A DNA stretch of 64,000 bases. Origin: a phage. The stretch lies in NCBI GenBank assembly GCA_012178725.1, contig GCA_012178725.1_3030.1, one strand, 5' to 3'. Of the stretch, positions 5,426 through 63,976 are shown piece by piece. The stretch's first letter is position 1. The number at the start of each line of letters is the position of its first letter. A program made the position numbers and the translations under genes. The notes beneath the pieces are model-generated. The model was not told where the DNA came from. It saw only the letters and a program-made list of their open reading frames with translations, and did not search any database.

Positions 5426-6061
5426 TCACAGTTCAGATGCTACAGTGATTACAGCTTCAATGTTTTCTGCCGAGCGTTTAATGTCAAGATACACATTACC
5501 GTTTTTAGCGATTTTACATGACATTCCGATGTCAGTAAATTTCTGAATATGATGTTCCATCATTTTGTATCCAAAAATTCGCATATTTCCATTATTGTTA
5601 ATTTCAAAATTACGAATTCCGTGAGTACGTTTTTCTAAAATAGCGAGATAGTTACTGCGATAAGTTTCAACCTTTTTAAGAACAAATCCATTTTCATCTA
5701 AAAGTTTTAACATGAGGTCTTTATCTTCTTCCATATCAGAAGTAATTTCACGAGCTTTACGAGTTGCTCGTTTTTTCAGTAGTTCCGGAGCATTTTCCTG
5801 TGCATATAAAGTTGCTGCGTTTGAAATAATATCCTGAGCTTCACCTGTAATGATTAATCCATCACCAGATTTCTCCACCAGGCCTTTTTTAATCAATACC
5901 CCAATATTACTATTAACTACTGCGTTACCTAAATCTGGATGTACCTCACGAACTTCTACAGCTGTAATGAAATCTTTCTTAGCAATGGTAATTAAAATCG
6001 CAGCAGTTTTTTCATTCAGAACATCGTTAGAAGCTTTGATGATATAAGTTACTTTAGACAT
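5426..6061 (-). CDS. motA: Middle-transcription activator MotA
   Basis: 211 aa, matches remembered T4 MotA (MSKVTYIIKASNDVLNEKTAAILITIAKKDF...); early promoter cassette upstream. Confidence 0.92.
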   Translation of the reverse strand: MSKVTYIIKASNDVLNEKTAAILITIAKKDFITAVEVREVHPDLGNAVVNSNIGVLIKKGLVEKSGDGLIITGEAQDIISNAATLYAQENAPELLKKRATRKAREITSDMEEDKDLMLKLLDENGFVLKKVETYRSNYLAILEKRTHGIRNFEINNNGNMRIFGYKMMEHHIQKFTDIGMSCKIAKNGNVYLDIKRSAENIEAVITVASEL

Positions 6062-6094
6062 TTTCTAATCTCCGTAATTCTGTATCAGTAGTTG

Positions 6095-6131
6095 ATAGTT
6101 GTATAGTACCACAGTATGCTTTGGTTGTAAA
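6095..6131 (-). promoter_or_regulatory. T4-type early promoter upstream of motA
   Basis: Minus strand GTTTAC-18-TGGTACTATACA, conserved leader ACAACTATCAACTAC..., SD GGAGATTAG. Confidence 0.6.
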
Positions 6132-6147
6132 CCGTTTTGTGAAAAAA

Positions 6148-9101: not shown

Positions 9102-9215
9102 TCACATAAATCCAAAGTAAACGTTTAATACATCAATCATTAAAACGATTGGGAATATACTCAAAACAACTAAAATTATAATTATATTCCATATAGCTTT
9201 AATAATCTTTTTCAT
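9102..9215 (-). CDS. Small membrane protein, 37 aa
   Basis: MKKIIKAIWNIIIILVVLSIFPIVLMIDVLNVYFGFM from internal ATG; GGAGGAAC SD; early-promoter cassette immediately upstream. Confidence 0.4.
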   Translation of the reverse strand: MKKIIKAIWNIIIILVVLSIFPIVLMIDVLNVYFGFM

Positions 9216-9220
9216 TTTGT

Positions 9221-9273
9221 GTTCCTCCGTGGTTGATAGGGTAATAATACCACAGAGGAACAGTCTTGTAAAC
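9221..9273 (-). promoter_or_regulatory. Early-promoter cassette with SD-complementary spacer
   Basis: GTTTAC AAGACT GTTCCTCTGTGG TATTATTACC...CCACGGAGGAAC ACAAA ATG. Confidence 0.55.
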
Positions 9274-9462: not shown

Positions 9463-9515
9463 AGTTCAATCTCAGCGATTTTCATTTTATTCTCCAAATC
9501 TGTATCAGTATTTGA

Positions 9516-9551
9516 TAGTTGTATAGTACCACGGTCCTTGTGGTATGTAAA
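9516..9551 (-). promoter_or_regulatory. T4-type early promoter
   Basis: GTTTAC ATACCACAAGGACCGTGG TACTATACAACTATCAA...GGAGAATAAA ATG. Confidence 0.55.
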
Positions 9552-9567
9552 CCATTTTGTGAAATTT

Positions 9568-13820: not shown

Positions 13821-15640
13821 TACTGGCTCATCCATTCTTTACGAAGGTCAGCATTATCTCCCATGAGCATTTCAAAAAGCTCTTTCCAGTTCTCAGGAAG
13901 TTTAACAACATCATATACTGGATTTTGAATCATCTCACGATATTCAGATTTTTCCAAAGAGCCAAGTCCTTTAATATAACGGATGCTATGTTTAGGTAGA
14001 GCATCTTTGGCACTCTCATATTCAGCGACTGTATAAAACCATTCTTGTTTTTTACCGACCTGAGCGATGATTACAGGAGTTTTGACAAAGCGAATTCGTC
14101 CTTGCTCAAACAGTTCTGGCCAATTACTAAAAAATCCAAGAAGAGAAGGATAAATGCTTCCTAGACCATCATGGTCAGCATCAGTCATAATAGCAATATT
14201 ATGATAATTCAAGTTTTCAGCTTTTTCACCAAGAACTAGACCAGTGATTGCGCAAATATCAAACAGTTCTTTGTTTTTAAGCATATCTGCATAAGACATA
14301 CCCCAGCTATTAAGAACTTTACCACGCAATGGATAACCACCGTGAAGTTCTTTATCACGAACATCAATAAGATATCCGATAGCAGAATCACCCTCAGTCA
14401 AGAAAAGAGTAGTGTCAGCATCTTTACCGCAAAGATTCGCTTTGATATGTTTATGAACCTTAGCTTTAGAAGCCTTTTTAGCTGCTTTAGTTTCTGCTGC
14501 TTTTTCTGCCGCCAATTTACGAGCCAAAGCAGCTTCAATAATCGGCATTAGAATTGCTTCATTATTTAGAATAGCACGTGAAATCTTTTTAGCATCAAGT
14601 TGAATATGACTACGGATTTCACCAAATGGAGAAGTCAAACGCTCTTTAGTTTGAGAATCAAATCGCATGTTTTTCATATCACGAACAAACATAACGATAG
14701 TCAAACATTCTTTGACACGCGCTTTGGTTACATCAATTTTGAACTTACGTTTGATTTGTGGAATAAGGTCTTCACAAATATCATCCATAACACAGTCAAT
14801 GTGATGGCCACCATTCTTAGTATGAATGTTATTCACATAAGTTAATTGACGAAAACCATCCGGTGAACGACCAACTGCAATAGAACAATTTTCTTGTTCT
14901 TGAACGATAGCATGCTCATCATATTGGCGTGCATATTTCTTAAAATTACCCTGAACCTTTTTACCATTAAAGGTAAATTGAATATCAGGATAAACAACAG
15001 CAAGTGTCTGGAGACGATCTAGTGTAATGTCAAGATAAACTTGGGACAGCTCATTAGTTTCAAATGACATAAAATCAGGAATGAAAGTAACACGAGTTCC
15101 TTTCCATTTTCCTGGAATAGTTTCCCATGATTTATTTTCCATGCCATTTGAACAACGAACTACAATATTATTTTGACCATCGCCAGTTTCACCAACAAAC
15201 ATCACAGAAAAAATGTTAGTTAAACTAGAACCAACACCGTTCATACCGCCGGTGACGCGTTCTTTATCATCACCGAAGTTACCACCTGCTTTTGGAATAG
15301 TCCATGCAGCAACAGGACCAGGAATTTCTTCACCGGTAGGTGTTTTAACCATCGCTTGTGGAATACCGCGACCGTTATCTTCAACTGTTACTTGATTGTT
15401 TTTAATAGTAACGTTAATTTTATTTGCGAATTTAAACTTAGTACGAATACCTTCATCTACTGAGTTATCGATAATTTCATCAATAAGCTTAACAAGACCA
15501 GGTACATACTGAACACTTTCCCATTTACCAAACAGAAAGCGCTCATGCATTTCATTAGCAGAAGAACCAATGTACATGCCGCTACGCTTTTTGATATGTT
15601 CAATATCGCTCAGAATTTTAATTTCATTCTTAATCATCAC
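13820..15640 (-). CDS. 39: DNA topoisomerase II large subunit (GyrB-like ATPase), uninterrupted gene 39 (T4 39+60 equivalent)
   Basis: 606 aa; GHKL ATPase and TOPRIM-like motifs; one continuous frame with no gene 60 split. Confidence 0.95.
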   Translation of the reverse strand: MMIKNEIKILSDIEHIKKRSGMYIGSSANEMHERFLFGKWESVQYVPGLVKLIDEIIDNSVDEGIRTKFKFANKINVTIKNNQVTVEDNGRGIPQAMVKTPTGEEIPGPVAAWTIPKAGGNFGDDKERVTGGMNGVGSSLTNIFSVMFVGETGDGQNNIVVRCSNGMENKSWETIPGKWKGTRVTFIPDFMSFETNELSQVYLDITLDRLQTLAVVYPDIQFTFNGKKVQGNFKKYARQYDEHAIVQEQENCSIAVGRSPDGFRQLTYVNNIHTKNGGHHIDCVMDDICEDLIPQIKRKFKIDVTKARVKECLTIVMFVRDMKNMRFDSQTKERLTSPFGEIRSHIQLDAKKISRAILNNEAILMPIIEAALARKLAAEKAAETKAAKKASKAKVHKHIKANLCGKDADTTLFLTEGDSAIGYLIDVRDKELHGGYPLRGKVLNSWGMSYADMLKNKELFDICAITGLVLGEKAENLNYHNIAIMTDADHDGLGSIYPSLLGFFSNWPELFEQGRIRFVKTPVIIAQVGKKQEWFYTVAEYESAKDALPKHSIRYIKGLGSLEKSEYREMIQNPVYDVVKLPENWKELFEMLMGDNADLRKEWMSQ

Positions 15641-17178: not shown

Positions 17179-17448
17179 TTAATTGAACAGTGGAGCGATG
17201 CGTTTCAGAAGAGTAGCAGCACCTTTAGCGAATTTTACATCATGAAAAACAGTTTCTTCTTCCGTTACAACACGAGCTTTAATGTTTTCACAATCCCAAT
17301 TTTTGCGAACAATCTTCAAAAGCTGCAGTAAATCTTTACATTCAGCAATATCGATAACACATCCACGAGAATCTTCCATTATCGCACGATAACCGTAAGC
17401 CATACCATAATCATTGAAAGATTGCTCGATGATAATTAAATTTTCCAT
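17179..17448 (-). CDS. Hypothetical protein
   Basis: 89 aa from ATG (MENLIIIEQ...) with GGAGAATAAA SD; track ORF starts at an upstream TTG. Confidence 0.5.
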   Translation of the reverse strand: MENLIIIEQSFNDYGMAYGYRAIMEDSRGCVIDIAECKDLLQLLKIVRKNWDCENIKARVVTEEETVFHDVKFAKGAATLLKRIAPLFN

Positions 17449-17545
17449 TTTATTCTCCAAGTTGTTTTCTGTATCAGTAGTTGATATTGATATAGTACCA
17501 TAATCAACTACTGATGTATATAGTTTTATGAAAAAATTTTAAACT

Positions 17546-18620: not shown

Positions 18621-19133
18621 TTAATCTAAGGTAATAAAGCCTTTTAATTCGGCATGCGATTTGCGAAACATTACTTGATGCCCACCAATGATAACTTGAT
18701 CATCTGGCACTTCATAAATCGCAATGTACATTCCACGATCTTTTAAGTCTTCACGCTCTTCTCGAGTAAACCATCTCATTATATCATATTCACTAGCGAA
18801 AGCAAAATGATATAATGCAATAAACCACAATGGAATATAATTTTCAATTCGTGAATAATCTTTATTCCATTTAGTTTTAATAGCATCATTAGCATTTTCA
18901 ACTAATAACTTATCATCGTGCGGAATAGGAATACTTTCATGACTTTCATAATTATCGCTATGATGATGAAATGACGATGAATTAATACCGCAAAATTTTA
19001 GCCAAGTTCGAGTTTTCATAGAATCAAATCCACGATAAGGAGTTGATTGAACACATAACTCTTGCCTAATTTTCATTATACCACTATCATCATTTAATGC
19101 GCTAAACGATGATTCAACACGATAAATTTTCAT
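18621..19133 (-). CDS. Hypothetical protein
   Basis: 170 aa from internal ATG (MKIYRVESS...) with GAGGATAATAAA SD. Confidence 0.5.
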   Translation of the reverse strand: MKIYRVESSFSALNDDSGIMKIRQELCVQSTPYRGFDSMKTRTWLKFCGINSSSFHHHSDNYESHESIPIPHDDKLLVENANDAIKTKWNKDYSRIENYIPLWFIALYHFAFASEYDIMRWFTREEREDLKDRGMYIAIYEVPDDQVIIGGHQVMFRKSHAELKGFITLD

Positions 19134-19196
19134 TTTATTATCCTCAGTAGCTATGGTGTTATAATACCACAACTGACCGAGGAAGTAAACAACTTT

Positions 19197-26805: not shown

Positions 26806-26813
26806 TATTTATA
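26806..26813 (-). promoter_or_regulatory. Late promoter (TATAAATA on minus strand) for soc
   Basis: Reverse complement of tatttata about 30 bp upstream of the soc ATG. Confidence 0.55.
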
Positions 26814-26858
26814 ATAAATTCTCGCGGCTTTTAAGTCGTCGTTTATTTAAACGAGCTA

Positions 26859-27377
26859 TTAATAGCCTCGGTCTTGACGAGCGAAATTTTCAGCATTTTT
26901 CAGATAATAAAGTTTAAATATTTCTTCAGCTGACATTCCAAGAGCAATAAATTTATTCATGAAAAAGTGAAATTGGTCAATCAGTTCAAATTTAATTTCA
27001 AGCTGATCTTCAGGAGATAAGTCTTGAATTTTCTTGGATTGCATTTCAGAATAACGTTTCTTCCAAGGTTTCCATACGGCAGAAGCTTCTTTTTCACCAT
27101 TACTCATACCACCAAGAGAAGTATATAGCTCGCGAGTTTCATCTGCGATATAATCGTCTTGGTTTCGCAACCAAGCAAGAACTTCTCCTGCAGTTTCAAG
27201 TGAATCAGGATGACGATTTGTTTCTGGTTTATCATTAGCCAAACGAATCTGTAAATGCCGCTGCATATCAAGCATAACCTGCAGTGGGTCAATATTGTGC
27301 ATAATATTCTCAGCATATGCACGAGTTGCTTTATCAACACCTTCGATCAAATGAGCGCATTCATTAAAGTGAGCCAT
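26859..27377 (-). CDS. 56: dCTP pyrophosphatase gp56 (MazG-like)
   Basis: 172 aa from internal ATG (MAHFNECAHLIEGVDKA...); track ORF N-terminally extended; MotA-box middle promoter upstream. Confidence 0.88.
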   Translation of the reverse strand: MAHFNECAHLIEGVDKATRAYAENIMHNIDPLQVMLDMQRHLQIRLANDKPETNRHPDSLETAGEVLAWLRNQDDYIADETRELYTSLGGMSNGEKEASAVWKPWKKRYSEMQSKKIQDLSPEDQLEIKFELIDQFHFFMNKFIALGMSAEEIFKLYYLKNAENFARQDRGY

Positions 27378-32480: not shown

Positions 32481-33636
32481 TTAACTGTTCGAGGTCAGTT
32501 TCTAAATCAGCAGCTGATTTACTTTTACTTTCTGGAGATTTAAATTTTTCAACCTTTGAGTTAATCAATTCATCAACTTCAGCTTCAACAATTTCATTAC
32601 TATCAATAGCACCTAACTGATAAGCACGTTTAATAGCATCTCGGAATGGTTGATGCTTAAATAAAGGACCCCAGAATGTAGTGCAGTTGGTATCTTTTGC
32701 ACGCCAAGATTTTTCTTCGCGAATCATCTCGCCGGTTTCTTCGTCAAGAAATTCACGAGCATACCAACCATTCTTAGGTTTTACTACAAATCCTAATTCT
32801 AGAGCCATATCTAACAATCCAGAATAAGGATCGATACCACCGTCAAATTTAACATCAATAAAGAATTTACTTTTTTCTTTAACGGTACGAGATTTTTCTA
32901 CATTTAGAACAAATTGATACCCTTGAAGATCAGAACCATCTTTAATCTGACGCTTACCGATAATGAATACGGTATCAGCCGAATACATTACGCCTGTACC
33001 ACCTGTCATCACGGTTTTACTAAACATTTCAATTGTTTCAATTGTATGGTTAACCGCAACACATGGAATATTTTTAATGCTAAAGTAAGGAGTAACAATA
33101 CGGAATAATGACTTCAGTGATTTAGCACGAGTCATATCTGCCACAGATTTTTCATTCAAGGCATCTTCCGTTTCTTTCTTAGAAGCCATATTACCAATTG
33201 AGTCGATGAATACTATAACCTTTTCACCACGCTCAATAGCTTCAAGCTGATTCACCATATCAATTTTCAGCTGTTCAACTGATTGAATTGGCGTATGAAT
33301 TACACGTTCCGGGTCAACTCCCATGGATCGCAAATAAGCTGGAGTAATACCAAATTCGCTATCATAGAATAGACAAACTGCGTCAGGATATTTGTTCAAA
33401 TATGCCGCAACCATAGTCAAAGACATATTTGATTTAAAGTGTTTAGAAGGCCCTGCGAAAATAGTTAAACCAGACTGCATACCGCCATCAATCGCACCAG
33501 AAATAGCAATATTAAGCATTGGGATTTTTGTACGGATTACATCCTTTTCATTAAAGAATTTAGATGTAGTCAGTTCAGCAGTCATTTTAGAAGTGGAAGC
33601 TTTAATCAAACGGGATTTTAAATCTGCAATAGACAT
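32455..33636 (-). CDS. uvsX: UvsX recombinase (RecA-like)
   Basis: 393 aa; RecA fold motifs (GPSKHFKS Walker A); N-terminus resembles T4 UvsX. Confidence 0.95.
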   Translation of the reverse strand: MSIADLKSRLIKASTSKMTAELTTSKFFNEKDVIRTKIPMLNIAISGAIDGGMQSGLTIFAGPSKHFKSNMSLTMVAAYLNKYPDAVCLFYDSEFGITPAYLRSMGVDPERVIHTPIQSVEQLKIDMVNQLEAIERGEKVIVFIDSIGNMASKKETEDALNEKSVADMTRAKSLKSLFRIVTPYFSIKNIPCVAVNHTIETIEMFSKTVMTGGTGVMYSADTVFIIGKRQIKDGSDLQGYQFVLNVEKSRTVKEKSKFFIDVKFDGGIDPYSGLLDMALELGFVVKPKNGWYAREFLDEETGEMIREEKSWRAKDTNCTTFWGPLFKHQPFRDAIKRAYQLGAIDSNEIVEAEVDELINSKVEKFKSPESKSKSAADLETDLEQLSDMEEFNE

Positions 33637-33713
33637 TCATTTTTTCCATAGGCATCATTATATTTTCCTCACTGGTTAAAGATAGAGTAATTATAACACA
33701 ATAAATTTAGGCA

Positions 33714-34562
33714 TTAATCAACTGCTATTGGATGAATAGCATTAAACTTATGAAATGCTTCTGATTTTTCTTTACGAGAAACACACATGCGAAGAACCTT
33801 TAATGGCTCGTCTTCTTCACCCAACGATTTTCGTTTTTCAATATTAGAAGTTTTCCAACGAGCTTGCTCTGGAAACTCTCTATTGATTTGCTCAAGCGCT
33901 CTATTATGTTTAGAATTACTACGAATTGAACTGCACCCGCCAGGAGCTTGTGCTTTTCCAGATACAACCAGATATTTGAACAAGGCCAAATGCGGATAAC
34001 CTTGATTAATTAAATTGAGAAATGCATACATATCTTCGCATAAATCAATTTTTCCATACCCAATTTGTTCTGTCGTAAGTTTTCCGAGATCATACCATGT
34101 ATTCGTGAATCCATATGAATTTTCACGATAATTACCCCAAGATGAAGTAATTTTAAAAATAGGTAGACGAGCATGGCCATGATAATACCCACAATCCATG
34201 GCATCCTCAACATATTGAATCAATTCATAGAACTGTTCACGAGTCAATTGATTGACTTTATCCACACAACGACGATCATCTCTTTTTCGCATTGAACTCA
34301 TACGAATAGTAGTATCATCGTCAATCATCCAGATTCGTTGACCTGCATACATATCAGTAATTGCTTTACGAGTACCAGCAATTCCATTTACATCATCAGG
34401 AATAGTTATAATTTTAGCTCTAGACCCATAGGCATCATAATAAGCTTTTTCTTCGTGTTCACGCACTACAATATGGGGTTCATAATCAGTCGGAAACATA
34501 TCAAGGGCAGAAACTGCCCCAACACGCTGATAACTTGGAATTACGAATTGAATCATTTCCAC
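33714..34562 (-). CDS. Putative hydroxymethylcytosine-DNA glycosyltransferase (DxD-containing, GT-A-like) at the beta-gt position
   Basis: 282 aa; ...RIWMIDDDTTIRM... DxD motif; sits between uvsX and 42 where T4 has the 351-aa beta-gt. Confidence 0.5.
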   Translation of the reverse strand: MEMIQFVIPSYQRVGAVSALDMFPTDYEPHIVVREHEEKAYYDAYGSRAKIITIPDDVNGIAGTRKAITDMYAGQRIWMIDDDTTIRMSSMRKRDDRRCVDKVNQLTREQFYELIQYVEDAMDCGYYHGHARLPIFKITSSWGNYRENSYGFTNTWYDLGKLTTEQIGYGKIDLCEDMYAFLNLINQGYPHLALFKYLVVSGKAQAPGGCSSIRSNSKHNRALEQINREFPEQARWKTSNIEKRKSLGEEDEPLKVLRMCVSRKEKSEAFHKFNAIHPIAVD

Positions 34563-35293
34563 TCACCGTTATAATCTTTTTTCACAATATGAGTTTCGCC
34601 AGTATTCCACCAATGATCAACCAAGTAAAAATGACGAGAATATACATGAAGACTTCCAACATTCCATATAATAGAACCTGCTTTATACTGACGAGTTGAA
34701 TCGCCTGCATTCAAATCAGATACTAATTTATCTAATACGTATTTTTGCCATGCATAATCATTACGGAATCCGAAGACCACGTCATTTGAGCGCATGTTAA
34801 CAACCGCATTGATTTTCTTGTCACGAATCAGATACTGTACGGTATTCGTACACATGAAATCTGACATGCCATCTTTATTGTAGTCAAATTGCATGGATGG
34901 ACGAGTATAAATCATGATACCACGTCGAGAATCAGGATTTTGACCAAGTTCAGCTAAACACATATCATATTGAGCATAGTTATCTTCTGACCAGATAGCC
35001 CAACCATAATTCGAGTTAATTTCACCTTTAGAAGATGCTACTTGTTGCCAAATCTTCGGTGTTTCACCCGGAATATCTTTAACGAACAAGCTCTTAGATT
35101 TATACCATTCAAGTTCACGCTGAATGTATTCATCATTAAGAGCGCCAAAAATAAACGGTTCATCTGCTATAAATGATGCGCCAATAATTTCAATAGTTTT
35201 AACGCCAGTTTTATCAACTACGAAATCTTTTTCTTTTAATGCAAGCCCCAAATGAAGACGGATTTCTTCAACTGTCATAGAGTCACTAATCAT
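34553..35293 (-). CDS. 42: dCMP hydroxymethylase gp42
   Basis: 246 aa; thymidylate-synthase-like fold; T4 gp42 size. Confidence 0.95.
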   Translation of the reverse strand: MISDSMTVEEIRLHLGLALKEKDFVVDKTGVKTIEIIGASFIADEPFIFGALNDEYIQRELEWYKSKSLFVKDIPGETPKIWQQVASSKGEINSNYGWAIWSEDNYAQYDMCLAELGQNPDSRRGIMIYTRPSMQFDYNKDGMSDFMCTNTVQYLIRDKKINAVVNMRSNDVVFGFRNDYAWQKYVLDKLVSDLNAGDSTRQYKAGSIIWNVGSLHVYSRHFYLVDHWWNTGETHIVKKDYNGEWK

Positions 35294-36098: not shown

Positions 36099-36350
36099 TT
36101 AAAACTTAACAAATAACTTTAAAGCATCTTCAGTTTTAATTCCTTTTCTTACACCCATAACAGAAATTGGCTGTGACTGAAATTTTCCTTTACCATTATA
36201 AATTTCTAATCCAGTCACCATTCCATTTTGTTCTATAATACCGTAAGTGTTACCTTCATTTTCAAATTCTTTAACTTTAAAAAGTTTATTCGCTTTTTCT
36301 GCGTTAACAACTTTTAAATTTTGAATAAAATTAGTTTGAATATTTTTCAT
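36099..36350 (-). CDS. Hypothetical protein
   Basis: 83-aa ORF with GGAGGAAC SD and early-promoter cassette upstream. Confidence 0.45.
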   Translation of the reverse strand: MKNIQTNFIQNLKVVNAEKANKLFKVKEFENEGNTYGIIEQNGMVTGLEIYNGKGKFQSQPISVMGVRKGIKTEDALKLFVKF

Positions 36351-36355
36351 TTTGT

Positions 36356-36408
36356 GTTCCTCCGTAGTTGATAGTTGTATAGTACCACAGAGGAACGGTC
36401 TTGTAAAC
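36356..36408 (-). promoter_or_regulatory. Early-promoter cassette with SD-complementary spacer
   Basis: GTTTAC AAGACC GTTCCTCTGTGG TACTATACAACTATCAA CTACGGAGGAAC ACAAA ATG. Confidence 0.55.
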
Positions 36409-46823: not shown

Positions 46824-48026
46824 TTATTTTGTAATAATGTCAAACTGTTCTTTAAAGCAGAAGCTTGAATCTTGATGCTGATACAAAAATTCATAAGCTT
46901 TTTCGCGTTCGCGGTCATAAAGAGTTCGATCAGATGACAGTTCTTTAATACGTTCAAATGTTGATTCCATGTCATTTTCATCAAACCAAATGATACCGCT
47001 ATCATGCGAGGTCAAAGGAGTATTATCAACACGGAATTTTAAATTTTCGCCAGTAGATTTCCAAAATACCGGAATTGTTCCACATGCACCAAGCTCGAGA
47101 TGAGTATATTCTAAAGAACGTTGTAGATATTTTTTATCCAACTTACTCAACTGATAACCAAAACCGGATTTACTCATACGTTCAAGCATTTCGCTATTTA
47201 CATAACGGTCAAGAATTTGCGTTGGCAAATTAGGAGCAATTTTAATTTGGTCTACTTGATGAAGACGATAATACTCGTATGGAATTCCTTTTTCTTTAAT
47301 AGGAATGAACGCTGGAGAACGTTCCAGACCTTCCATAATAGTACTTAGTCCTGCAGGTTTAAGATGTTTTTCATGAAAATCAAACATCTGATAAAAACCT
47401 TTCCATGTAGTCGTACGACCAATCCAACGGTTGATATTCATGTTAATTTCAGAAACATCTTTCCAGTAGGTTGATCGAACCTTCGCAATATCCATCGGAG
47501 GTTGAAAGTTATATACTGTCGGTGCTTCTTCAATATCATCAAACAGAGAAACTGTTTCAGGATACCATTCTTTCATCAGAACTTTATTAAAATCACCATT
47601 ATCAGAATGGCTAAAAATAACATCAGCTCGACGAACAGTTTCTTCTAATCCCAAATTTCGGCGCAAAGAAAGAGAAGAATGGTCATGTTGATAAACTACA
47701 ACACGAACAGAAGGTTTAATGTTATCAATAATTTTTTTATAGTTATTAATAGTGTCTTCTTCAACCGAAGTAGCAGGAACTGAATTGATAATTAGAATAT
47801 CACAATCATTTACCAGCTTAAGTGTTTTATCATATTCTTTTGCCAATAAAACCGGAATTGAAAATGATTTATAATCATGCGCGCAATTACGAGTAAATGA
47901 TTTATCTTTAGCATAAACCAAAGTTACTTCATGACCATTCTTAATAAACCAATCACGTTGCTCAAGAGAAAATTTAGTTACACCACAACCTTCAAGACCT
48001 CGAGCCATAAAAATACATACTTTCAT
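46824..48026 (-). CDS. agt: DNA alpha-glucosyltransferase
   Basis: 400 aa; N-terminus M.ICIFMARGLEGCGVTKFSLEQRDWFIKNGHEV matches remembered T4 alpha-gt. Confidence 0.88.
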   Translation of the reverse strand: MKVCIFMARGLEGCGVTKFSLEQRDWFIKNGHEVTLVYAKDKSFTRNCAHDYKSFSIPVLLAKEYDKTLKLVNDCDILIINSVPATSVEEDTINNYKKIIDNIKPSVRVVVYQHDHSSLSLRRNLGLEETVRRADVIFSHSDNGDFNKVLMKEWYPETVSLFDDIEEAPTVYNFQPPMDIAKVRSTYWKDVSEINMNINRWIGRTTTWKGFYQMFDFHEKHLKPAGLSTIMEGLERSPAFIPIKEKGIPYEYYRLHQVDQIKIAPNLPTQILDRYVNSEMLERMSKSGFGYQLSKLDKKYLQRSLEYTHLELGACGTIPVFWKSTGENLKFRVDNTPLTSHDSGIIWFDENDMESTFERIKELSSDRTLYDREREKAYEFLYQHQDSSFCFKEQFDIITK

Positions 48027-48050
48027 TTAATATCCTCTTTGTTTTGGTTT

Positions 48051-52839: not shown

Positions 52840-54653
52840 TGGTGTTTAACCCTATGCATGATTTCTTTATTTTTACCGAGATTAAATCCGCGTTCGTTCG
52901 GATTTCCCAAATAACCACATGTTCTTCTTATTGTGTTCATCTTTTTAGGATCAGTTTCTCCACAAATAGAACAAACAAATCCGTTTTCAGTAGGAGTCAT
53001 TTCATGGGTACTTCCACATGTAAAACATTTATCTACTGGCATATTAACACCAAAATAATCTAAATGTTGTGCAGCATAATCCCATACGGCCTCAAGACCC
53101 TTTAAGTTATTTTTCATATCAGGAAGTTCAACATAAGAAATGTGACCACCTGTCGCAATGAAATGATATGGCGCTTCACGAGAAATCTTTTCAAACGGAG
53201 TAATATTTTCTTCTACTGAAACGTGGAAACTGTTAGTGTACCAGCCTTTATCGGTAACATCTTTTACACTTCCATATTTTTCTGTATCAAGTTTACAGAA
53301 GCGATAACAAAGGTTTTCAGCAGGAGTAGAATACAAACTAAAAGCAAACCCAGTTCTTTCAGTCCACTGTTTAAGACGAGCATTCATTTTAGTTAAAATT
53401 TCTCGTCCAATATCACGACCTACAAGAATATTCAATTCGTGAATACCAATGTATCCTAGAGACACTGAACTTCTGCCATTTTTAAATAACTCAATTATAT
53501 CGTCATCAGGTTTAAGACGAACCCCGAATGCACCTTCTTGGTAAAGAATAGGAGCAACAGTTGCTTTAACTCCTTTTAAGGAACTAATTCTACACATCAA
53601 AGCTTCAAAACACAAATCCATTCGCTCATTGAACAATTCGATAAATTTCTGTTCATTGAACTGTGTTCCAATATAAGAATCTAATGCGATACGAGGAAGA
53701 TTCAGTGTTACAACACCAAGATTATTACGTCCATCAAGAATTTCATTACCAGTCGAATCTTTCCATACGCTCAAGAAACTACGGCAACCCATCGGAGAAA
53801 CAGGAACAGATGAACCAGTGATAGCTTTATTGTTCTTAGCTGAAATAATATCAGGATACATCCTTTTGCTTGCGCACTCTAGAGCAAGCTGTTTAATATC
53901 ATAGTTTGGATCGTCTTTATAAAGATTAACACCTTCTTCAACAAACATAACAAGCTTAGGGAAAATAGGAGTTATCCCATCACGACCAAGACCTTTAATA
54001 CGATTTTTCAGAATTGCTTTCTGAATCATTCGTTCAGTCCAGTCAGTTCCCGTACCAAATGTAATTGTTACAAAAGGTGTTTGCCCGTTTGAACTAAAGA
54101 GAGTATTTACTTCATATTCATAAGCTTGGAATGCATCGTATACGTCTTTTTCTGTTTTAGATTGAGCATAATTCAGTGCATCGGCGATTTGCCATTTTTC
54201 TGCATCCTCAATATGTTTTGCATAGGTGCGTTTAACATAAGGAGAAAGTACTTTATCTACATTAGCAAAAGTCGTTCCGCCATATTGATGGGAAGCAACC
54301 TGTGCAGTAATTTGTGCCATAATTGCAGTAGCAACGCCAATTGATTTAGGAGTTTCAATCTGTGCATTACCAAGCTTAAATCCGTTCTCAAGCATTCCTT
54401 TTAAATCTACTAAACAGCAATTAGTAAATGGAAGAGCAGGGGAATAATCAATATCATGGAAATGAATAATTCCGCTTTCATGCGCTTTCATAATAAAAGA
54501 CGGGACCATATTTTTGGCAATGTGTTTAGACACAATACCAGCCATAAGGTCCCGTTGAGTTGGAAAAACACGAGAATCTTTATTAGCATTCTCGTTTAAA
54601 AGGTCTTTATTAGTTTTATGAATCAATCCTTCAATTTCTTTTTCAATTGTCAT
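52836..54653 (-). CDS. nrdD: Anaerobic ribonucleotide reductase NrdD, uninterrupted
   Basis: 605 aa; C-terminal zinc ribbon CFTCGS...CSICG and glycyl-radical region RRTCGYLG; single continuous ORF. Confidence 0.95.
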   Translation of the reverse strand: MTIEKEIEGLIHKTNKDLLNENANKDSRVFPTQRDLMAGIVSKHIAKNMVPSFIMKAHESGIIHFHDIDYSPALPFTNCCLVDLKGMLENGFKLGNAQIETPKSIGVATAIMAQITAQVASHQYGGTTFANVDKVLSPYVKRTYAKHIEDAEKWQIADALNYAQSKTEKDVYDAFQAYEYEVNTLFSSNGQTPFVTITFGTGTDWTERMIQKAILKNRIKGLGRDGITPIFPKLVMFVEEGVNLYKDDPNYDIKQLALECASKRMYPDIISAKNNKAITGSSVPVSPMGCRSFLSVWKDSTGNEILDGRNNLGVVTLNLPRIALDSYIGTQFNEQKFIELFNERMDLCFEALMCRISSLKGVKATVAPILYQEGAFGVRLKPDDDIIELFKNGRSSVSLGYIGIHELNILVGRDIGREILTKMNARLKQWTERTGFAFSLYSTPAENLCYRFCKLDTEKYGSVKDVTDKGWYTNSFHVSVEENITPFEKISREAPYHFIATGGHISYVELPDMKNNLKGLEAVWDYAAQHLDYFGVNMPVDKCFTCGSTHEMTPTENGFVCSICGETDPKKMNTIRRTCGYLGNPNERGFNLGKNKEIMHRVKHQ

Positions 54654-61951: not shown

Positions 61952-62479
61952 TTATGCGAGTACCGTCTTTAACCGTTCTTCAAACTTCCGAAGAGTATTC
62001 TGGCGTTCAGCTCTTTGCTTTTTGTAAGTTTCAATACGCTCTGAAATGAGAGTGTATCGTTCATTTACTGATTCTTTCATAAAATCAGGAATTTCACGAG
62101 AAGCTTTAATCTCATCAAATTTATCAATAACAGCTTGCTCTTCAGCAATTAAGTTATCATACATCAAAATATCTTTCTTGATGAACTCAATATCTTCTTG
62201 AGTTACACGAGATAACTTAGATGCTTTATCCTTTTTGTACTGTTCGTTAGTATCACGAGACCAGTGTAATGTACGATTTTTATTCGTATTTTTGTAAATT
62301 TCTACAATACCAATCTCATCGATGATAACAATCCAATTCCAACGAGATTTATAAATTTGTCCTCCATCAACCGTGATTTCATCTCCAATTGAGATGTCAT
62401 TAAAGAACTTGCTTTGTGCTTCAGATTTAAATTTACCATCGTTGTAATTTACCAAGTTGAAAATATCTTTAGCATTCAT
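61952..62479 (-). CDS. Hypothetical protein
   Basis: 175-aa ORF; GGAGGAAC SD and early-promoter cassette upstream. Confidence 0.5.
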   Translation of the reverse strand: MNAKDIFNLVNYNDGKFKSEAQSKFFNDISIGDEITVDGGQIYKSRWNWIVIIDEIGIVEIYKNTNKNRTLHWSRDTNEQYKKDKASKLSRVTQEDIEFIKKDILMYDNLIAEEQAVIDKFDEIKASREIPDFMKESVNERYTLISERIETYKKQRAERQNTLRKFEERLKTVLA

Positions 62480-62484
62480 TTTCT

Positions 62485-62537
62485 GTTCCTCCGTAGTTGA
62501 TAGTTGTATAGTACCACAGAGGAACAGTCTTGTAAAC
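62485..62537 (-). promoter_or_regulatory. Early-promoter cassette with SD-complementary spacer
   Basis: Near-identical to the 36356..36408 cassette. Confidence 0.55.
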
Positions 62538-62539
62538 CG

Positions 62540-62854
62540 CTAAAAGAAACTTCTTTCACAATTTTTTCCACTGAACCACGCGCTCACTGCTTTCTTAGTC
62601 TCAGGAGCAGTGTTATCCATAAACCATTCAAAGGCAGCCTTTTTATGATTCTGGAGGGCTTCTCGGGCTTTAATCTGCTCACGGTCTATTAACACTAACA
62701 TATGAGCCTTTCTTGTCACCAAGGGCTTCTTATGATTTTTTGAATACTCCCAGTCATTTGTCCATCGCATTGTCGTTGCAAATTGAAATACAGCTTCTTT
62801 AATTTTAGTTTCGTAAATTTCACGAGCCTTTGAGTATAACATCATTACCTCCAT
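62540..62854 (-). CDS. Hypothetical protein
   Basis: 104-aa ORF. Confidence 0.5.
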   Translation of the reverse strand: MEVMMLYSKAREIYETKIKEAVFQFATTMRWTNDWEYSKNHKKPLVTRKAHMLVLIDREQIKAREALQNHKKAAFEWFMDNTAPETKKAVSAWFSGKNCERSFF

Positions 62855-62943: not shown

Positions 62944-63924
62944 TTATTTCAGAAGAGTAACCTCAGCAATTTCTTCCCAACCATTTTTGTCGGTCATAAT
63001 AAAGTCAGCAAGATAAAGAGCAGTACGCAGTGAAACATTGCGTAAACGATTAACATTGACTTTCATCCATGATAATGCTTTATAAGTTTCTTCATCAGAA
63101 AGACCGCGCTTTTGCATCATGTCAGTTGAAAGAATAACATCTTCAACCCTGACCATAATTTCTTCATTAGTGTGAACACCCAAATCCAAATAAACTGAGC
63201 GGGACACTAATGCTTGTAAATGTGGAGCAAGTTTAGTACCACGGTCTAATTCGCGGTCAATGTCAACGTTTGTGATAAAAACAATCGTTCCTTTAAATTC
63301 AAACTCACGCTCAATGCCTTTTTCTTCTAAGTAAGAAGATGCGGTGCTCCAGCAGACTTTACGGGTCTCTCCAGTGTCCAGAGCAGCTTTCAGAAGATTA
63401 AGAATGTCCATATCAGAGAAAACATCCACATCATCAATCAAAAGGACAGAATTCTCTTCACGATTATTCCAAAGCTGCTCATAAAGACCAATACCAGAGA
63501 TTTTACCATTAATGCTTTTATATTCAATGTATCCAATATCATTTGCTTTATTTAAAGCTTTATCTAAAGAATACGTTTTACCAATACCTGCTGCACCAGA
63601 GATAATTAATGAACGAATGTTTCCGTTAATAATACCATTCGTCATCATTCCCATAACATTAAATCTTTTATTAATGCGGGTTTTCATATCTTCATACGAT
63701 TCTTTAACTTCTTCAACTTTTACACCATCATATGAAATGTCTGATTTGTAAACCCAAACACCGCGACGTTTACCGTCAATTTCAACAAAAACTTTACCAT
63801 CTCCTTGTGCATCTACCGGAGCATTATCTGGGAACCATTCGCCTAAGAGCTCAAAAGTTCCAGAGATTTCTTTACCGAAGTAGATACCCTTATTGATAGT
63901 TACAGTTTTCATTTTATTCTCCAA
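62944..63924 (-). CDS. AAA-type ATPase (nrdC.10-like)
   Basis: 326 aa; Walker A GAAGIGKT, Walker B LLIDDVD; early promoter upstream. Confidence 0.6.
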   Translation of the reverse strand: MENKMKTVTINKGIYFGKEISGTFELLGEWFPDNAPVDAQGDGKVFVEIDGKRRGVWVYKSDISYDGVKVEEVKESYEDMKTRINKRFNVMGMMTNGIINGNIRSLIISGAAGIGKTYSLDKALNKANDIGYIEYKSINGKISGIGLYEQLWNNREENSVLLIDDVDVFSDMDILNLLKAALDTGETRKVCWSTASSYLEEKGIEREFEFKGTIVFITNVDIDRELDRGTKLAPHLQALVSRSVYLDLGVHTNEEIMVRVEDVILSTDMMQKRGLSDEETYKALSWMKVNVNRLRNVSLRTALYLADFIMTDKNGWEEIAEVTLLK

Positions 63925-63939
63925 ATCCGTATCAGTTGA

Positions 63940-63976
63940 TAGTTGTATAGTACCATAAAGCTTTATGCTTGTAAAC
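63940..63976 (-). promoter_or_regulatory. Early promoter with palindromic spacer
   Basis: GTTTAC AAGCATAAAGCTTTATGG TACTATACAACTATCAACTGATACGGATTTGGAGAATAAA ATG; spacer holds 14-bp palindrome CATAAAGCTTTATG. Confidence 0.5.

Follow-up and report, generated by a model that had tools for sequence, protein, structure and literature searches.

A T4-type early promoter of nrdC.8 whose spacer is predicted to mask the Shine-Dalgarno sequence in read-through RNA

Results and Discussion

The intergenic element ahead of nrdC.8 in a T4-like phage is, judged by its -35 element, spacer length, and extended -10, a sigma-70-type early promoter. This promoter probably belongs to the PeSL family and lies in a hairpin that masks the Shine-Dalgarno (SD) sequence in read-through RNA, with nrdC.8 being translated mainly from transcripts of its own promoter, in the immediate-early period. 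Cassettes of that family comprise an AT-rich block, GTTTAC, a 17-nt spacer, TGn-TAYWAT, a start-site/leader block, the SD, and the ATG. RNA arriving from an upstream promoter (that of nrdC.10, through nrdC.9) would fold into a 15-bp hairpin that buries GGAGG, whereas RNA initiated at the promoter itself would begin in the hairpin loop without the 5′ arm and would carry a free SD on a leader of ~22 nt. The nrdC.8 GGAG would be open to the RegB/S1 endonuclease mainly on own-promoter transcripts, and read-through RNA would carry nrdC.8 in a translationally silent, RegB-protected form. Each promoter-ORF cassette would be a self-contained expression unit, an inverted counterpart of the late-gene arrangement known from T4 (e, soc, 49, I-TevI), in which a late promoter lies within the SD-masking hairpin.

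The promoter and the repeated cassettes are a known class, re-discovered here in a near-copy of a model phage: both an extended T4 early promoter consensus and repeated promoter/stem-loop/SD cassettes have been published (PMC2988021, PMC2839356, PMC4122927). Pairing between the spacer and the SD, with compensatory changes at many early promoters, is a modestly interesting and testable extension, and we found no statement of an early-promoter spacer acting as an anti-SD element in the T4 literature consulted. If the gating is real, it would supply a simple rule for which densely packed early-operon transcripts are translated, could be part of the reason that RegB spares some GGAG sites in longer RNAs, and would describe the autonomy of mobile promoter-ORF cassettes.

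Identity and Anatomy of the Element

The window, the whole stretch of 64,000 nucleotides that was analyzed, is from a Tequatrovirus. It is ~98% identical to sequenced T4-like phages, its final 4 kb match many of them over the full length at 98% identity, and all of it is collinear with T4 160196-168903 plus 1-55408. Positions 62477-62537 on the minus strand are the nrdC.9/nrdC.8 intergenic region, which reads GTTTACAAGACTGTTCCTCTGTGGTACTATACAACTATCAACTACGGAGGAACAGAAAATG from 62537 to 62477. The ORF annotated nrdC.8 starts at the ATG at 62479-62477, and the stretch between its SD and this ATG is AACAGAAA. The equivalent T4 cassette, at 53886-53945, differs from the window copy by three substitutions. 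Table 1 gives the anatomy of the element together with its relatives in the window.

Table 1. Features of the nrdC.8 promoter cassette and of related early promoters in the window
Feature	Positions	Strand	Basis or remark
-35 element GTTTACA, nrdC.8 early promoter	62531..62537	-	Fits T4 early -35 GTTTAC at -36..-31 (PMC1524935)
Promoter spacer, 17 nt, AGACTGTTCCTCTGTGG; 3′ end is the extended -10 TGG	62514..62530	-	Promoter anatomy
Predicted hairpin 5′ arm (anti-SD), CUGUUCCUCUGUGGU	62513..62527	-	Spacer plus one base of the -10; 5′ of the inferred start
-10 hexamer TACTAT	62508..62513	-	Promoter anatomy
Predicted hairpin loop: remainder of the -10 plus inferred start	62498-62512	-	Predicted fold
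Inferred transcription start, A, 7 nt past the -10, in the hairpin loop	~62501	-	T4 numbering, -10 at -12..-7 (PMC1524935)
Conserved leader ACAACTATCAACTAC, about -6 to +9; core CTATCAAC straddles the inferred start	62493..62507	-	Repeat and orthologue comparison
Predicted hairpin 3′ arm, ACUACGGAGGAACAG: ACUAC plus SD	62483..62497	-	Predicted fold
Shine-Dalgarno GGAGG, including RegB motif GGAG	62488..62492	-	Sequence
nrdC.8 ORF, 175 aa, served by the cassette	61952..62479	-	phrog_2274
nrdC.9 ORF; stop codon 62540-62542, 2 nt ahead of GTTTAC	62540..62854	-	Putative source of read-through RNA
First SD-hairpin cassette, ndd.4 promoter	9213..9273	-	Sequence and fold
Second SD-hairpin cassette, gene 43 side; drives an 83-aa ORF absent in T4	36348..36408	-	T4 homology breaks in the leader
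motA early promoter: same -10 and leader; long leader, hairpin absent	6059..6132	-	-35/-10 annotated in T4 record Z48569
ndd.6 early promoter: same leader, 1 mismatch; long leader ending GGAGAATAAAATG	9483..9552	-	Alignment
cef-side promoter: 13-bp spacer/leader hairpin without the SD	17446..17521	-	Fold
nrdC.10 early promoter: same leader, 3-nt deletion; palindromic spacer	63910..63976	-	Alignment
motB.2 early promoter: predicted SD-masking hairpin of unrelated sequence, UCCUCGGUCAG / CUACUGAGGA	19131..19190	-	-15.6 kcal/mol; 1/500 shuffles; SD 4/4 paired

An earlier note, made from the letters alone, had placed a promoter-like element upstream of the ORF at 61952..62479. The element does lie directly 5′ of nrdC.8, and its -35, spacer, and extended -10 are those of a T4 early (sigma-70, Pe) promoter: GTTTACA, 17 nt, TGG, and TACTAT at 62537-62508. 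The 30 nt upstream of the -35 element are at least 60% A+T, but they are the 3′ end of the nrdC.9 coding sequence, and the AAAAATTTTTTCACAAAAC block of the sister copies is absent there. The spacer is the most variable segment across orthologous nrdC.8 promoters. A PHROG scan of nrdC.8, nrdC.9, and an extra 83-aa ORF returned "unknown function" for all three and gave no hint as to why gating would be needed; an Rfam scan of the whole window gave no match at the gathering score. A 2026 paper on DRT1 mentions nrdC.8 only as a down-regulated transcript, which is irrelevant to the cassette.

Predicted Pairing between the Spacer and the Shine-Dalgarno Sequence

The 15 nt ahead of and entering the -10 hexamer are complementary to the leader plus the SD. 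The predicted nrdC.8 stem has 15 bp, two of which are G.U pairs, and a folding energy of -27.1 kcal/mol (z = -5.8). None of 200 dinucleotide shuffles folds as well, and none of 500 shuffled spacers equals the spacer/leader pairing. The geometry is that of a promoter inside a hairpin: the 5′ arm ends within the -10, and the inferred +1 falls in the loop. Folding with 150 nt of upstream RNA predicts an unpaired probability of at most 0.002 for the SD in all three SD-hairpin copies, and covariation (below) supports this predicted pairing of the SD in upstream-promoter transcripts. Transcripts beginning at the start site are predicted to be unstructured or weakly folded (0 to -6.7 kcal/mol, no better than shuffles): the SD is mostly free in those of the copies at 36379 and 9244, and that of the copy at 62508 gives a weak, non-significant fold.

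Because the 5′ arm lies 5′ of the inferred start at ~62501, own-promoter RNA would lack it, and masking of the SD would be confined to read-through RNA. The description of the cassette as SD-sequestering in the earlier note is apt for RNA begun upstream, in which the 15-bp stem is predicted to bury the SD; it does not carry over to the promoter's own transcript, which would lack the 5′ arm at 62513-62527. Read-through RNA into the cassette is expected, with the nrdC.10 promoter as its likely origin, and a terminator scan found no minus-strand terminator-like site between that promoter (63976-63947) and the nrdC.8 cassette. In T4, an intrinsic terminator lies directly 5′ of the nrdC.10 promoter. 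A ribosome ending at the nrdC.9 stop codon, 12 nt ahead of the 5′ arm, could open the stem in part and bring about translational coupling.

Cassette Family and Leader Conservation

Exact matches to the 15-mer ACAACTATCAACTAC are found at 6088, 36364, and 62493, and near-matches at promoter-like sites occur at 9508 (one mismatch), 63932 (two), and 17477 (three). Allowing up to three mismatches, the window contains 12 matches versus 2.6 expected, a number reached in none of 100 shuffles. Seven cassettes in the window align over the -35, TGGTACTAT, and the leader core. The proposal in the earlier note that at least seven elements share the leader survives for the core CTATCAAC, which all seven cassettes contain; the full 15-mer is not common to them, because the copy at 9244 has TACCCTATCAACCAC as its leader and the copy at 63947 has a 3-nt deletion. 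Three of the cassettes, at 9213-9273, 36348-36408, and 62477-62537, have a short leader ending in GGAGGAACA and a spacer complementary to the leader, so the nrdC.8 element was correctly called a third copy. The motB.2 promoter is a fourth SD-masking case in the window. At the nrdC.10 promoter, the ORF call starts at the TTG at 63924; the true start is probably the ATG at 63912-63910, which follows GGAGAATAAA at a spacing suited to an SD.

The leader was compared among related phages by aligning the nrdC.9/nrdC.8 intergenic orthologues of T4, one divergent Tequatrovirus (F2), one Mosigvirus (JS09), one Gaprivervirus, and two Dhakaviruses. The nrdC.8 proteins of these phages share 67-85% identity. 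At the orthologous promoter, CTATCAACTAC is invariant in Tequatrovirus, Mosigvirus, and Dhakavirus, with Gaprivervirus as the exception, while the spacer between the -35 and -10 is rewritten across the same promoters. Since CTATCAACTAC is invariant in all but the Gaprivervirus, the leader is conserved in related phages. Loss of the leader in such phages had been named in the earlier note as the finding that would overturn its claim of conservation beyond the -35 and -10 hexamers. That claim stands: the leader is common to the copies listed there and is kept in the orthologues of three genera.

The T4 early promoter consensus is reportedly that of Liebig and Ruger (1989) and Miller et al. (2003). 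That consensus has GTTTAC, a TGn-extended -10, an A-rich upstream block, and extra conserved regions, and compared with it the nrdC.8 promoter shows nothing beyond membership. Most of the stringent early promoters in T4 have nnnnCTATCAA after the -10, and nine T4 promoters have the shared leader. Published T4 numbering puts GTTTAC at -36..-31 and the -10 at -12..-7 (PMC1524935), which places the conserved block of nnnnCTATCAA at about -2 to +6. C residues are preferred at -3..-1 (Nolan et al. 2006, PMC1524935), and alignments of T4 early promoters show "additional regions of consensus" (Hinton 2010, PMC2988021). The segment CTATCAAC(TAC), from -2 to about +9, is most simply read as the early-promoter start-site/initial-transcribed consensus; it is also the stretch of homology in which the cassettes recombine. 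The 15-mer singled out in the earlier note is the start-site/initial-transcribed part of the T4 early consensus in its most conserved sub-family.

Signs of Selection on the Helix, and Generality of the Stem

In the Dhakavirus orthologue, the SD-masking stem is kept with rewritten arms, AUCUCCAGUAG/CUACUGGAGGU; in the Mosigvirus orthologue, the stem flanks the -10 and leaves the SD free. The same architecture with unrelated arms occurs at the T4 early promoters of denV (UCUCCUGUAGGU/AACUACAGGAGA), regB (CCUCUUGACUG/CAGUUAAGAGG), motB.2, and ndd.4. An IMG/VR scan with the pattern GTTTAC..TAYWAT..CTATCAAC, combined with T4 and the window, gave at least 112 unique cassettes. At least 40 of those listed have spacer/leader duplexes of -11 kcal/mol or better, and the whole SD is covered in 34 of these 40 strong duplexes, among the matches listed.

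Compensatory change was counted in two ways. When arms were picked by the 5′ motif [AT]TCTCC-NN-TAG alone, the two variable bases matched their partners in 13 of the 16 unique cassettes listed, the matching pairs being TG/CA, AG/CT, and AT/AT; the three exceptions have a different, shorter leader. A formal count over nine sequences gave 98% of cells paired and 8 double-sided changes, where shuffles gave 3.1 ± 1.2 and slid controls were near zero; these nine were chosen for strong stems, which biases the statistics upward, so the unbiased 13/16 is the fairer figure. Cassette families are related by duplication and recombination, and the counts therefore do not represent independent events. At internal non-Watson-Crick positions, G.U outnumbers A.C by 12 to 3, an excess expected of sense-strand RNA rather than of DNA or antisense RNA. 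Together, these observations support selection on the helix as sense-strand RNA. The 12-to-3 ratio also disfavors a cruciform at the DNA level.

At 10 of 21 stringent early promoters in T4 and at 5 of 11 early promoters in the window, the spacer pairs with the leader better than at least 99% of its shuffled versions do. In about half of the significant T4 hairpins, those of cef, the promoter near 73.9 kb, 30.7, and cd.2, the partner of the spacer is +1..+12 instead of the SD. For this reason, the general selected role of the stem-loops may be something else, with SD masking a by-product wherever the SD is the sole G-rich partner. Because only about half include the SD, and because the Mosigvirus orthologue leaves it free, the general feature is a stem-loop overlapping the promoter, of which SD masking is one frequent form. 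We propose only tentatively that in T-even-type phages the "free" spacers of many early promoters have been recruited as anti-SD elements, which would let each cassette be translated from its own promoter alone and leave it silent and RegB-protected on read-through RNA, and that compensatory evolution has kept the pairing. Were this so, early genes would widely possess an equivalent of the hairpins at the late promoters of e, soc, 49, and I-TevI, and the insulation of shuffled ORFan cassettes from their genomic context would be explained.

The cef-side promoter of the window has a degenerate -35 (ATATACA) and a perfect 13-bp hairpin, AUCAGUAGUUGAU/AUCAACUACUGAU, that pairs the spacer with +1..+13. 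Its SD is left free, so SD masking cannot be the role of this hairpin.

Relationship to PeSL Cassettes and Attenuation

An RB49 PeSL stem-loop is reported to have terminator/attenuator activity, and recombination crossovers in RB49/phi1 were mapped between the -10 and the SD/ATG (Arbiol et al. 2010, PMC2839356). PeSLs have also been described in the T4/PST pair, with the consensus TTTACW-N17-TAYWAT and an exchange at ndd.4/.5, and in nt-1/KVP40 (Comeau et al. 2014, PMC4122927). The window cassettes resemble them in being repeated intergenic units of an AT-rich block, a sigma-70-type early promoter, a stem-loop, an SD, and an ATG. They fit the PST/T4 consensus, and the composite is present in seven window copies, three of them with the same stem. 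As in the window, PeSL stem-loops may sit between the -35 and -10 or overlap the -10. ORF indels and crossovers between the -10 and the SD/ATG are likewise common to PeSLs and to the window family: the copy at 36379 drives an extra 83-aa ORF relative to T4, with the junction in the leader, and the ndd.4 locus is both a published site of PeSL exchange and one of the three hairpin copies in the window. The genes flanking the copy at 62508 are syntenic with T4.

The published PeSL stem-loops are described as terminators/attenuators, with G-tract/C-tract stems in RB49 and a position drawn "just upstream of the promoter" in PST, whereas the window helix joins the promoter spacer to the downstream SD and has no U tail. 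Neither Arbiol et al. 2010 nor Comeau et al. 2014 was found to mention SD masking. An intrinsic (rho-independent) terminator was rejected for nrdC.8, where the tail after the stem is AAAAUGAAUG, with no U tract.

The stem-loop might still attenuate or terminate RNA polymerase arriving from upstream, which would stop strong tandem promoters from summing and make the SD pairing incidental. This is the PeSL authors' own proposal, and the reported activity of the RB49 stem-loop favors it, as do the hairpins that do not touch the SD. It also accords with the four T4 promoters that lie just after an intrinsic terminator (motA, frd.3, nrdC.10, mrh.2), none of which has a spacer/leader stem, and all nine strong T4 stems lack an upstream terminator. 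Over the 21 T4 promoters, stems occur in 0 of 4 with a terminator versus 9 of 17 without, a difference that is not significant (Fisher about 0.08). This trend, suggestive though not significant, fits a role in the handling of read-through RNA. However, a U-rich tail is absent at the nrdC.8 cassette and after all 40 strong stems listed, the 10 nt past the 3′ arm being 59% A and 21% U; the terminator scan of the minus strand gave no site at the nrdC.8 cassette; and the arms are centered on the SD in 34 of the 40 strong stems, among the matches listed. We regard attenuation as an unlikely main role for this hairpin.

RegB Sites and Late-Promoter Hairpins

Translational gating resembles a known arrangement in T4 late genes. 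The SDs of e, soc, 49, and I-TevI are masked in long RNAs and freed in late-promoter transcripts that begin inside the structure (Uzan and Miller 2010, PMC3014915). As in those genes, where the SD and/or AUG lies in a helix of the long transcripts and the genes' own transcripts lack the 5′ strand, the nrdC.8 SD is predicted to be paired in read-through RNA and free in own-promoter RNA. Expression of e, soc, 49, and I-TevI is delayed until late by promoters of the late type (TATAAATA, gp55), whereas the promoter inside the nrdC.8 hairpin is of the early sigma-70 type. By analogy, the nrdC.8 cassette appears to work like the late-gene set without being a member of it, and since its promoter is early, the same logic would confine translation to promoter-proximal early RNA.

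The SD of nrdC.8 also contains a candidate RegB/S1 site, GGAG in the SD of an early gene being typical of such sites. All T4 intergenic GGAG sites have been tested, with nrdC.8 "moderately cleaved" and denV resistant; secondary structure inhibits RegB, and the consensus is GGAGAAUAAAA (Durand et al. 2006, PMC1702504). The nrdC.8 site GGAGGAACAGA differs from this consensus by a C at position 8 and is predicted to be paired in read-through RNA. Its GGAG is followed by GAACAGA, which includes this C; own-promoter RNA is the only transcript in which this GGAG is predicted to be unpaired. The long-leader sisters (ndd.6, cef side, nrdC.10) end in a perfect match to the RegB/S1 consensus, GGAGAATAAAA. 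On the minus strand, GGAGAATAAAATG at 9483-9495, 17446-17458, and 63910-63922 matches GGAGAAUAAAA perfectly; the hairpin cassettes have GGAGGAACA(C/G)A instead, with the C that the consensus disfavors.

These sites bear on another reading, in which the hairpin serves mRNA processing or stability: after cleavage in the A-rich start region it would be left as a protective 3′ stem-loop for nrdC.9, and it would shield GGAG from RegB so that polycistronic messages survive. The inhibition of RegB by secondary structure and the resistance of structured GGAG sites (PMC1702504) are in keeping with such a role, as are the merely moderate cutting at nrdC.8, the in vivo resistance of the SD of denV, a T4 gene whose promoter shares this architecture, and the selection on the helix at the level of sense RNA. 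Durand et al., however, see the A-rich context on the 3′ side as the main cause of resistance, and GGAGGAACAGA does not conform to GGAGAAUAAAA. Protection of this kind also overlaps the translational reading and does not exclude it. As the principal explanation, a stability element seems quite doubtful.

Signs of Recombination within the Leader

Several marks at these promoters are in keeping with cassette exchange. The 83-aa ORF (phrog_18567), at 36099-36350 on the minus strand of the window, lies between the gene-43-side early promoter and imm.1 and is absent in T4. There, the same promoter is joined to a long leader plus imm.1, and homology resumes exactly in the leader, at 36361. A junction in the leader is as expected for PeSL-type cassette exchange. 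In T4, the nrdC.10 (55355) and frd.3 (146846) promoters show no difference between about -55 and +2, and their sequences part after ACAACTATC. Two further T4 promoters, those of imm.1 (27051) and e.8 (70667), combine a long leader with an "orphan" anti-SD arm, TGTTCTTCC. The nrdC.10/frd.3 identity and the orphan arms of imm.1 and e.8 look like footprints of recombination within the leader.

It is very improbable that leader and hairpin are functionless products of duplication, gene conversion, and cassette shuffling, of use, if at all, to recombination alone, as inverted repeats or DNA homology: the junctions in the leader (including that at the imm.1 locus), the identity of nrdC.10 and frd.3 to +2, the orphan 5′ arms on non-matching leaders, and the experimentally shown RB49/phi1 crossovers (PMC2839356) fit this well, but compensatory arm changes and a G.U bias are not expected of a patch of DNA homology, the leader is invariant in three genera while the adjoining spacer is rewritten, and stems that are not related in sequence turn up at unrelated promoters, for example those of regB, motB.2, and denV.

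Elsewhere in the window, most homing-endonuclease genes of the corresponding T4 region are lacking. Relative to T4, segments at mobA/60.1, segF, the dam region, segA/beta-gt, mobB, mobC, and the I-TevII intron are missing or replaced, and the gaps in the T4 comparison lie, for example, at window positions 14155-14220, 26813-26896, 33624-34571, 48014-48042, and 54115-54118.
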